Assembly: GCF_003334815.1 (NCBI RefSeq)
Contig: NZ_QOWO01000017.1
Direction: 5' to 3' (one strand)
DNA length: 64,000 nucleotides
Origin: Escherichia coli
Lineage (GTDB): Bacteria; Pseudomonadota; Gammaproteobacteria; Enterobacterales; Enterobacteriaceae
Below the pieces are notes generated by a model. It did not search any database. It saw nothing but the letters and a program-made list of their open reading frames with translations, and was not told where the DNA came from. Made by a program: the position numbers and the translations under genes. Of the stretch, positions 57,723-61,883 are shown in pieces; position 1 is the stretch's first letter; each line of letters begins with the position of its first letter.

Positions 57723-58733
57723 TTATCGCGAAGGAGCAATGAGTGAGTCGCGGCGGATCAGTTTTCCGCTGAAGGTTTTCGGCGGTGAGAAATCCCCGCC
57801 ATCGAGCATAAAAATCAGCCGTCCAATAATTTCCTGAATCATCTCAGTCACCGGAATTTTTACGCTGGAGAGCGCCGGAACGGTGTAGGGGGCAATAGCG
57901 ATATCATCGAATCCGATAACTGACACCTGCTCTGGCACCGCTACGCCGCGCTCGTGTAACGCTTTCATCGCACCTATCGCCATATCGTCGTTACTGGCAA
58001 CTAACGCGCTAAATTTAGCCCCACGTTCGAGCAACATTTCTACCCCTTCGGCCCCGCTGGCAGGCGTCCATTTACCGTTAGCGATAAGTTTTTCATTGAG
58101 CGCAATACCATGCTGCGCCAGCGCGTCTTTATACCCGGCAAGACGTTCAATGCTGGTGGGGGAATCCATCGAGCCGGTAAGGAAAGCAATCTCCTGATGC
58201 CCGGCGTTTATCAACTCTGCCACGGCGTTAAAACTGGTCTGTTTATGATCGCACCAGACGCTATGGCTGCTGTTTTTGCGCAGGCGGCGATTAAGCACCA
58301 TTATCGGCTGACTGTGCGCGTCAATGATGTCATCGATCTCATCCACGCTTAAAAAACGCGGGTAAATCATGATCGCGTCGCAGCGCAGATCCAGCAGATA
58401 CTGAATCGCCTGGCGCTCTTCTTCTGCGCTGTGTTTACCATCTGCCAATAGCAACTGCCGCCCTTTCTCTTCCGCCATTCGCGCGGCATGAAAGAGTAAT
58501 TCACTAAAATAAATGCCGTGGTAAAGCGTGTTGGTCACTACCAGCCCCAGCGTCTGAGTACTCTTCGCCGACAGATTGCGCGCCAGCAAGTTTGGACGGT
58601 AACCGCTCTCTTCTACCGCCTGAAACACGCGATCTTTAGTCTCCTGGCTGACGTAGCCATTACCTGAAAGCACGCGGGAAACGGTCGCTTTTGAAACCCC
58701 GGCGCGCTTCGCCACTTCCAGCATCGTCGTCAT
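57723..58733 (-). CDS. ascG: LacI-family repressor of the asc operon
   Basis: MTTMLEVAKRAGVSKATVSRVLSGNG HTH; the ORF track starts 22 codons earlier. Confidence 0.8.
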   Translation of the reverse strand: MTTMLEVAKRAGVSKATVSRVLSGNGYVSQETKDRVFQAVEESGYRPNLLARNLSAKSTQTLGLVVTNTLYHGIYFSELLFHAARMAEEKGRQLLLADGKHSAEEERQAIQYLLDLRCDAIMIYPRFLSVDEIDDIIDAHSQPIMVLNRRLRKNSSHSVWCDHKQTSFNAVAELINAGHQEIAFLTGSMDSPTSIERLAGYKDALAQHGIALNEKLIANGKWTPASGAEGVEMLLERGAKFSALVASNDDMAIGAMKALHERGVAVPEQVSVIGFDDIAIAPYTVPALSSVKIPVTEMIQEIIGRLIFMLDGGDFSPPKTFSGKLIRRDSLIAPSR

Positions 58734-58992
58734 CATTTTCATCCCTTTACACGCAATCAACGCAGTGTACTGCACCGTTTGCCGATTGTCCTTGCACAAT
58801 CGGCGGGAAAAATATTCAGGTGACCGGTTTCACAAATATAAAAAATGAACAATTCACTCTCTTGCTTATTTAGTGACAACTATTCATGATTTTGTGAAAC
58901 CGGTTTCTTAATTCCGTTTCAGCATCGGCATTTTTCCGTCACGTCGACTGATAACAACTACATCTACCCTACTGATAACAGGATAAAATCCG

Positions 58993-60450
58993 ATGGCCAA
59001 AAATTATGCGGCGCTGGCACGCTCGGTGATAGCGGCACTGGGCGGCGTTGATAACATCTCGGCGGTCACGCACTGTATGACGCGGTTGCGCTTTGTTATC
59101 AAAGATGATGCACTTATCGACAGCCCGACGTTAAAAACCATCCCCGGCGTGCTCGGCGTGGTACGTAGTGACAACCAGTGTCAGGTGATTATCGGCAATA
59201 CCGTTTCACAAGCCTTTCAGGAAGTCGTCAGCCTGCTGCCGGGAGATATGCAGCCCGCACAGCCCGTGGGTAAACCCAAACTCACGCTACGTCGCATTGG
59301 TGCGGGGATCCTCGATGCGCTGATCGGCACCATGTCACCGCTGATCCCGGCGATTATCGGCGGATCGATGGTCAAACTGCTGGCAATGATCCTCGAGATG
59401 AGCGGCGTGCTGACAAAAGGATCGCCGACCTTAACCATTCTGAATGTGATTGGTGACGGTGCTTTCTTCTTCCTGCCGCTGATGGTCGCGGCATCTGCCG
59501 CCATCAAATTTAAAACCAATATGTCGCTGGCGATTGCCATCGCGGGTGTGCTGGTACATCCGAGTTTTATTGAACTGATGGCGAAAGCGGCCCAGGGTGA
59601 ACATGTCGAATTTGCCCTGATTCCGGTCACCGCGGTGAAATACACCTACACGGTGATCCCGGCGCTGGTGATGACCTGGTGCCTGTCATATATCGAACGC
59701 TGGGTGGACAGCATTACACCGGCGGTGACCAAAAACTTCCTCAAACCAATGCTGATTGTGTTGATTGCCGCACCGCTGGCAATCCTGCTGATTGGCCCGA
59801 TTGGTATCTGGATCGGTAGCGCCATTTCGGCGCTGGTTTACACCATTCATGGTTATCTGGGCTGGCTTTCAGTCGCCATTATGGGCGCGCTGTGGCCTCT
59901 GCTGGTAATGACCGGGATGCACCGCGTCTTTACGCCAACCATCATTCAGACCATTGCCGAAACCGGCAAAGAAGGGATGGTCATGCCGTCAGAGATCGGC
60001 GCTAACCTGTCGCTGGGCGGTTCATCACTGGCAGTGGCGTGGAAAACGAAAAACCCGGAACTGCGTCAGACGGCGCTGGCTGCGGCGGCATCAGCCATTA
60101 TGGCGGGGATTTCCGAACCGGCGTTATATGGCGTGGCGATCCGCCTGAAACGTCCGCTTATCGCCAGTCTTATCAGCGGTTTTATTTGCGGCGCGGTTGC
60201 CGGTATGGCGGGGCTTGCCAGCCACTCAATGGCAGCGCCGGGGCTATTTACCAGCGTGCAGTTCTTCGATCCGGCGAATCCAATGAGCATCGTCTGGGTG
60301 TTCGCGGTCATGGCGCTGGCGGTGGTGCTGTCGTTTATCCTCACACTGTTGCTCGGCTTTGAGGATATTCCTGTTGAGGAAGCGGCTGCCCAGGCGCGAA
60401 AGTATCAGAGCGTACAACCGACCGTCGCCAAAGAAGTAAGTCTTAATTGA
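58993..60450 (+). CDS. ascF: PTS beta-glucoside (arbutin/salicin/cellobiose) EIIBC
   Basis: 485 aa. Confidence 0.9.
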
Positions 60451-60458
60451 GGATGAAA

Positions 60459-61883
60459 ATGTCAGTATTTCCAGAAAGTTTTTTATGGGGCGGCGCGCTT
60501 GCCGCCAACCAGTCTGAAGGTGCGTTCCGTGAAGGTGACAAAGGTCTGACCACTGTCGATATGATCCCACACGGCGAGCATCGAATGGCGGTGAAACTGG
60601 GGCTGGAAAAACGTTTTCAGTTGCGAGATGACGAGTTTTATCCCAGCCATGAGGCGACGGATTTTTATCATCGTTATAAAGAAGATATCGCCCTGATGGC
60701 AGAGATGGGATTCAAGGTTTTCCGTACCTCAATTGCCTGGAGCCGTCTCTTTCCGCAGGGCGATGAAATCACGCCCAATCAGCAGGGCATTGCTTTTTAT
60801 CGTTCTGTCTTTGAAGAGTGTAAAAAGTACGGTATCGAACCGCTGGTCACGTTGTGCCACTTCGATGTGCCGATGCATCTGGTCACCGAATATGGCTCCT
60901 GGCGTAACCGCAAGCTGGTGGAGTTTTTCAGCCGCTACGCCAGAACCTGCTTTGAAGCATTTGATGGTCTGGTGAAATACTGGCTAACCTTCAATGAAAT
61001 CAACATTATGTTGCATAGCCCGTTCTCCGGCGCGGGTCTGGTGTTTGAAGAAGGTGAAAATCAGGATCAGGTGAAATATCAGGCCGCGCATCACCAGCTG
61101 GTTGCCAGTGCGCTAGCCACCAAAATCGCCCATGAGGTTAACCCGCAAAATCAGGTGGGCTGTATGCTGGCGGGCGGTAACTTCTACCCTTACAGTTGCA
61201 AGCCGGAAGATGTCTGGGCGGCGCTGGAGAAAGACCGGGAAAACCTGTTTTTTATCGATGTGCAGGCGCGGGGCACGTATCCGGCTTACTCTGCCCGCGT
61301 ATTCCGCGAAAAAGGGGTAACCATCAACAAAGCACCGGGCGATGATGAAATCCTGAAAAACACCGTCGATTTTGTCTCTTTCAGCTATTACGCCTCGCGC
61401 TGCGCCTCGGCGGAGATGAACGCCAACAACAGCAGTGCGGCGAACGTGGTGAAATCGCTGCGTAATCCGTATCTACAGGTGAGCGACTGGGGCTGGGGAA
61501 TTGATCCACTCGGTCTGCGTATCACCATGAATATGATGTACGATCGTTATCAGAAGCCGCTGTTTCTGGTGGAAAACGGCCTGGGCGCAAAAGATGAATT
61601 TGCTGCCAATGGCGAGATTAACGACGACTATCGCATCAGCTACTTACGCGAACATATCCGCGCAATGGGCGAAGCGATTGCAGACGGCATTCCGCTGATG
61701 GGCTACACCACATGGGGCTGTATTGATTTAGTTTCCGCCTCTACGGGTGAAATGAGCAAACGCTACGGCTTTGTCTTTGTTGACCGTGACGACGCAGGCA
61801 ACGGTACGCTGACGCGCACGCGTAAGAAATCATTCTGGTGGTATAAAAAAGTGATTGCCAGTAATGGGGAAGATTTAGAGTAG
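60459..61883 (+). CDS. ascB: 6-phospho-beta-glucosidase (GH1)
   Basis: N-terminus [22 protein letters not shown], 474 aa; TFNEIN and ENG catalytic motifs. Confidence 0.9.

Follow-up and report, generated by a model that had tools for sequence, protein, structure and literature searches.

The window analyzed here, a stretch of 64,000 nucleotides from Escherichia coli (contig NZ_QOWO01000017.1 of the assembly GCF_003334815.1), carries the asc beta-glucoside locus, in which the repressor gene ascG stands divergent from the ascFB operon. We find that this locus is very probably the canonical asc operon of E. coli in its wild-type state, with the phenotype called 'cryptic' in K-12. The identity and integrity of the genes, the geometry and conservation of the operators, the identity to K-12, and the frequency of the locus in the population all come from the present analysis. 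Among the 'cryptic' operons of E. coli, asc ranks with the best known; the feature described here is not new, and nothing is unusual at the locus.

An intact asc locus identical to that of K-12

The ends of the interval 57723-61883 fall precisely on the stop codon of ascG and on that of ascB. Its gene content and order are those of the asc operon: a LacI-type regulator gene is divergent from a gene for a phosphotransferase system (PTS) enzyme IIBC (EIIBC), which is followed by a 6-phospho-beta-glucosidase gene. A 259-bp spacer separates ascG from ascFB on the opposite strand, and 8 nt lie between the stop codon of ascF and the start codon of ascB. The neighbors are also those of K-12, with hydN-hypF upstream and hycI-hycH-hycG-hycF downstream, which places the genes in the chromosomal slot of the asc operon between hydN-hypF and hycI. 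Reading the open reading frames (ORFs) of ascG, ascF, and ascB, we detected no internal stops.

The regulator is AscG itself and no other LacI paralog. The protein is identical to b2714 and matches over its full length the crystallized AscG sequences PDB 3DBI (E 6.5e-220) and 3BRQ (named AscG), while its scores against the other LacI-family equivalogs (GalR, GalS, CytR, PurR, and RbsR) all stay under the respective cutoffs. Pfam models assign a LacI helix-turn-helix (HTH) domain to residues 3-48 (PF00356, E 3.4e-21) and the Peripla_BP_1/3 models PF13377 and PF00532 to residues 60-330. Thus, AscG has the N-terminal HTH and the periplasmic-binding-protein-like effector domain of the LacI/GalR family, and its HTH motif TVSRVLS is in place.

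The two structural proteins both score above curated NCBIfam cutoffs. AscF scored 1025 bits against the NCBIfam equivalog NF007311 (cutoff 722). It has the IIB phosphorylation motif CMTRLR at Cys28, a match to an EIIB domain model, and a TIGR00852 IIC domain above cutoff at residues 154-441, as expected for an EIIBC of the PTS Glc/Bgl family; IIA was unmatched. Of the 618 positions in the beta-glucoside IIABC model, AscF covers only 1-468 and hence lacks the IIA part. AscB scored 1088 bits against NF007356 (cutoff 623), gave full-length matches to four 6-phospho-beta-glucosidase subfamily models, and carries the two catalytic glutamates of glycoside hydrolase family 1 (GH1) in the motifs NEIN at 179 and ENGLG at 372. 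These are real genes and not a chance pattern. The earlier note on this DNA, made from the letters alone, had named the three genes and described ascG as uninterrupted and divergent from ascFB; the family models, the PDB matches, the RefSeq entries b2714-b2716, the ORF from ATG to TAA, and the strand layout bear it out on each of these.

Comparing the window with the MG1655 chromosome (NC_000913.3), we found that positions 54056-64000 are 100% identical and in register. This segment includes the asc locus and 3.6 kb of its upstream flank, and a 7.5-kb query around the locus likewise matched MG1655, along with many further E. coli strains, at 100% identity. The likeness to ascG-ascFB (b2714-b2716) of MG1655 therefore covers nucleotide sequence, gene order, neighbors, operator boxes, and proteins; there are zero differences inside the locus, and only the strain background departs. 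Outside 54056-64000, the direct comparison gave 13 + 51 mismatches (64) and several indels, which rules out that the window is MG1655 itself. The closest complete genome over 34000-56000 is that of the human isolate G1/2. The strain is a natural E. coli and a close K-12 relative, whose asc locus is indistinguishable from that of K-12. As the cis elements and the proteins are identical, the K-12 phenotype, i.e., no growth on arbutin, salicin, and cellobiose, is the right expectation for this strain.

Elsewhere in the window (1-54055), a 407-nt register shift relative to MG1655 was seen at the left end. Repeat variation was seen at about 37500-38020, in the tRNA-Arg cluster argQ-argZ-argY-argV / serV.

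The divergent control region

The spacer holds a perfect 14-nt inverted repeat, made up of ACCGGTTTCACAAA at 58823-58836 and TTTGTGAAACCGGT at 58891-58904, which defines two predicted AscG boxes (Table 1). Box 1 is invariant across five divergent E. coli alleles, and box 2 is kept in the same alleles except for its last base. The AscG consensus is said to be TGAAACCGGTTTCA, and AscG reportedly interferes with CRP through overlapping sites, an account partly corroborated via citing papers. The spacer has two boxes, one of which overlaps a CRP-like box. The citing paper PMC3505978 also gives two AscG sites for ascFB. Counting the TGAAACCGGTTTCA motif over the whole 64-kb window at up to two mismatches, we obtained one match, which is not significant, as 26 of 100 shuffled sequences gave at least one. 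The count alone is thus not above chance, and the support for the operators comes from their position, their 14-nt pairing, and their conservation.

We propose the following model for the locus. AscG, a repressor of the LacI/GalR type encoded divergently from ascFB, would bind the two inverted TGTGAAACCGGT copies in the spacer. One copy overlaps the CRP-like box, and the other would cover the site where transcription from a weak ascF promoter probably starts; hence, occupancy of both should block RNA polymerase as well as activation by CRP. Repression would then operate by shutting out CRP and the polymerase at the same time. AscF would import and phosphorylate beta-glucosides, and as it has no IIA domain of its own, it needs IIA supplied in trans for phosphorylation. 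AscB, as a GH1 6-phospho-beta-glucosidase, would cleave the beta-glucosides phosphorylated by AscF. As neither arbutin nor salicin nor cellobiose relieves AscG, an Arb-/Sal-/Cel- phenotype is expected of the strain as long as ascG has not been knocked out.

We infer the position of the ascF promoter, the class I spacing of CRP, and the source of IIA for AscF. The candidate promoter scores 7/12, below the threshold of our sigma-70 scan. The start that it implies would lie near 58897, inside box 2 and ~70 bp downstream of the center of the CRP-like box, a distance that would suit class I activation.

We found no sign of control by antitermination. Terminator-like sites were no commoner in the sequence than in shuffled sequences, and none lies in the ascF leader. 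An Rfam search of 57400-62200 gave zero matches, and no BglG/SacY-type antiterminator gene is present between hydN and hycI. The antiterminator gene and the leader with a ribonucleic antiterminator (RAT) and terminator, by which a bgl-type operon is recognized, are thus both missing here. Having neither an antiterminator gene nor an Rfam leader, the locus is not regulated in the bgl manner.

Two further elements were seen near these sites. The ascF leader contains, shortly before the start codon, an exact 10-nt direct repeat, ACTGATAACA, with copies at 58947-58956 and 58971-58980 (24 nt apart); it may be due to chance. A sigma-54-like element, TGGCATGATTTGTG, lies on the minus strand at 57610-57627 in the hydN-ascG spacer, upstream of hydN. 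A site for the RpoN holoenzyme between hydN and ascG has been listed by genomic SELEX (systematic evolution of ligands by exponential enrichment; PMC8743547).

Table 1. Features of the asc locus, with positions in the window.
Feature	Position	Strand	Basis or remark
ascG, LacI/GalR-family repressor, 336 aa, 1011 nt, ATG..TAA	57723-58733	-	ORF list; RefSeq b2714 in MG1655
Divergent ascG/ascF control region, 259 bp, 40% GC	58734-58992		
AscG box 1, GGTGACCGGTTTCACA	58819-58834		Predicted; 1 mismatch to the CRP consensus TGTGA-N6-TCACA
Candidate weak ascF promoter: -35 TTGCTT (58862-58867), 17-nt spacer, -10 CATGAT (58885-58890)	58862-58890	+	Inferred only
AscG box 2, TGTGAAACCGGTTTCT	58893-58908		Predicted; 1 mismatch to the 14-nt palindromic consensus TGAAACCGGTTTCA
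ascF, PTS beta-glucoside permease EIIBC, 485 aa	58993-60450	+	ORF list; RefSeq b2715 in MG1655
ascB, GH1 6-phospho-beta-glucosidase, 474 aa	60459-61883	+	ORF list; RefSeq b2716 in MG1655
Repetitive extragenic palindromic (REP)-type elements between ascB and hycI, 3' boundary of the locus	61888-61990		Sequence reading

Conservation of asc in E. coli

To follow the locus in the species, we compared the alleles of the window with those of O157:H7, avian pathogenic E. coli (APEC) E956, APEC O1, BL21, and strain 504211. In these six alleles, including that of the window, ascG, ascF, and ascB keep their exact length and have no stops or frameshifts. The ratios of nonsynonymous to synonymous substitution rates (dN/dS) of the window against the five divergent alleles were 0.07-0.12 for ascG, 0.09-0.15 for ascF, and 0.06-0.09 for ascB. 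All three genes are thus under strong purifying selection, and the pattern of conservation is the signature of used and regulated genes, not of dead ones.

The BL21 allele of ascB stood out in this comparison. BL21 ascB (3960-5384 of its extracted locus, aligned with 60459-61883 of the window) has a synonymous rate (dS) of 0.50, and its mismatches are densest at nt 300-1200 of the gene, reaching 34 in 150 nt. For ascF and ascG next to it in BL21, dS is 0.04-0.08. This suggests that BL21 ascB is a mosaic with an imported recombinant segment.

We also surveyed the coverage of asc by BLAST in 5,426 complete E. coli genomes, scoring a gene where a single place covered at least 80% of it. ascG was found in 4,700 of the genomes, always with a single such place, a measure of gross structure that is blind to frameshifts, nonsense mutations, and insertions so short that the flanking matches merge into one place. 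The 4,702 ascG places fell in 4,701 records, so that one record at most could hold a distantly split copy. ascFB was found in 4,699 genomes, and the asc genes are present and contiguous in 87%; in about 726 of the 5,426 (13%), ascG, ascF, and ascB are jointly absent. When 60 rows were sampled across the ranking, 59 had a single-piece, full-length ascG. Where the locus exists, an uninterrupted ascG is therefore normal; the genomes surveyed either keep ascG intact or have lost it along with ascFB, with practically no case of an insertion sequence (IS) splitting the gene.

The earlier note had pointed to IS insertions in ascG of related isolates as something to look for. None splits ascG in the 4,700 genomes, apart from the one record that could, and the laboratory route of activation, disruption of ascG, is thus essentially unseen in sequenced isolates. 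By the same count, the intactness of ascG, from which the note had drawn its prediction for this strain, is uninformative as a diagnostic of the strain, since in gross structure all the asc-bearing genomes share it.

A truncated ascG was seen in a single strain, WL164, the weakest of the 60 sampled rows. Here (4001-5487 of the extracted locus), ascG lacks its N-terminal part, corresponding to 58606-58733 of the window, and borders on an incomplete IS621 transposase gene; ascFB has been deleted, and an HTH gene and hypothetical genes follow the truncated ascG. As ascFB is gone, the disruption of ascG in WL164 does not activate the operon.

The genomes without asc were illustrated by ABU 83972, where homology to the window extends over 6 nt of the 3' end of ascG, up to 57728, and starts again at 61827 to take in the final 57 nt of ascB. 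Such breakpoints indicate that asc-less genomes are deletion derivatives. In ABU 83972 (1730-1845 of the extracted locus), the deletion is of ~4.1 kb, corresponding to 57729-61826, and the hydN-hycI slot is occupied by a toxin-antitoxin pair (HigB-family toxin, HTH antitoxin) together with hypothetical genes. In various strains, the REP-type palindromes have served as an insertion site for IS621, a member of the IS110 family (e.g., 5429-6722 of one extracted locus), and the ascB-hycI interval holds 1.2-2.5 kb insertions with hypothetical genes in several other genomes.

Cryptic or regulated, and the comparison with bgl and chb

That AscG represses the operon, that IS186 activates it, and that no inducer is known are points taken from the literature. 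PMC3505978 and PMC4403981, the latter citing Hall & Xu 1992, describe asc as cryptic and activated by an IS186 insertion in ascG, with no known effector for AscG, and so agree with what the earlier note had said of K-12. In ascG-deleted strains, ascFB is de-repressed (PMC4488073), and AscG has been described as repressing both ascFB and prpBCDE (PMC6550539). The note had predicted from the intact repressor that the operon is silent here. The K-12 phenotype is indeed what the sequence identity leads us to expect, but 'silent' is too absolute.

Several observations weigh against our reading, the first three of them against complete silence. The growth of AL17 on cellobionic acid needs ascB, and sequencing of the strain revealed zero mutations in the asc genes (PMC4403981); in the view of the authors of that study, ascB is not cryptic on cellobionic acid. 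For ascB, an AscG-sensitive internal promoter has been reported, with a start of transcription and promoter activity within ascF that respond to removal of the ascG-ascB region (PMC4488073). The dN/dS values of 0.06-0.15 in all three genes would mean that they are used often enough to be kept. Performing a sigma-70 consensus scan of the spacer, we found zero promoters above threshold, although the absence of a strong sigma-70 promoter fits a weak, activator-dependent one. Finally, the operator consensus and the CRP-interference mechanism find their support in part through secondary citation.

These observations raise the question of whether asc is an ordinary inducible catabolic operon and not cryptic at all, in which AscG is released by an effector derived from the natural substrate, cellobionic acid or a related oxidized or phosphorylated beta-glucoside. 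On this view, an intact ascG would be the mark of a regulated operon and not of a silent one. We regard this explanation as a tentative one. It draws on the growth of MG1655, BL21(DE3), XL-1 Blue, and AL17 on cellobionic acid, which in AL17 is abolished by deletion of ascB with asc otherwise unmutated (PMC4403981), on the ascF transcript levels that shift with growth condition in uropathogenic E. coli (UPEC) (PMC9241551), and on our finding of strong purifying selection on all three genes, conservation of both operators, and zero IS-split ascG alleles among the 4,700 genomes, by which the laboratory route of activation is not seen in nature. However, AscG has no known effector (PMC3505978), and the cellobionate study measured neither the induction of ascFB nor the release of AscG and names no transporter (PMC4403981). 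Moreover, ascB may be expressed from its internal promoter independently of ascF, and constitutive asc expression still gives poor growth on cellobiose (PMC4488073). If the operon is inducible after all, the universal intactness of ascG and the purifying selection would reflect ordinary regulated use, a property of E. coli generally and not of this window.

The opposite explanation, that asc is a decaying relic whose ORFs survive by chance before loss, is very improbable. The 726 genomes of the 5,426 that lost ascGFB by a ~4.1-kb deletion, leaving only the last 57 nt of ascB, and the description of the operon as cryptic in K-12 could be read in its favor. In contrast, the six alleles lack stops and frameshifts, their catalytic and phosphorylation motifs are intact, and the genes remain contiguous in most genomes (87%). 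On the dN/dS values and the integrity of the motifs, we reject the reading of asc as a decaying pseudogene. The wild-type asc operon with the K-12 phenotype thus remains our reading of this locus, while the survey, the purifying selection, and the published need for ascB on cellobionate together argue that the label 'cryptic' reflects the substrates tested and not real disuse. This is a literature-level question about E. coli in general, on which the window yields no discovery.

Among known systems, bglGFB, the other cryptic aryl-beta-glucoside system, shares with asc the biochemistry of a Glc/Bgl-family PTS permease and a GH1 6-phospho-beta-glucosidase. AscB aligns with the 6-phospho-beta-glucosidase models, as in the bgl biochemistry. 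AscF aligns with the BglF model only at 2-469 of 627, the IIBC part, and lacks the C-terminal IIA of BglF. The control differs: asc has a divergent LacI-type repressor, whereas bgl has the BglG antiterminator, and unlike the bgl type, asc showed no structured leader RNA family in Rfam. Activation in the laboratory differs as well, by repressor knockout in asc and instead by promoter-proximal IS insertion in bgl, where such an insertion relieves H-NS silencing. The asc operon is regarded as a probable duplication of bgl (PMC4488073).

The chb (cel) operon differs more in its parts, with a PTS of the Lac/Chb family having separate IIA, IIB, and IIC, a GH4 glucosidase, and regulation by NagC/ChbR (in part after PMC4488073). 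It was long called cryptic for cellobiose, and its natural substrate, chitobiose, was found later (PMC4488073; also cited in PMC4403981). By this precedent, 'cryptic' may mean only that the wrong substrate was tested.

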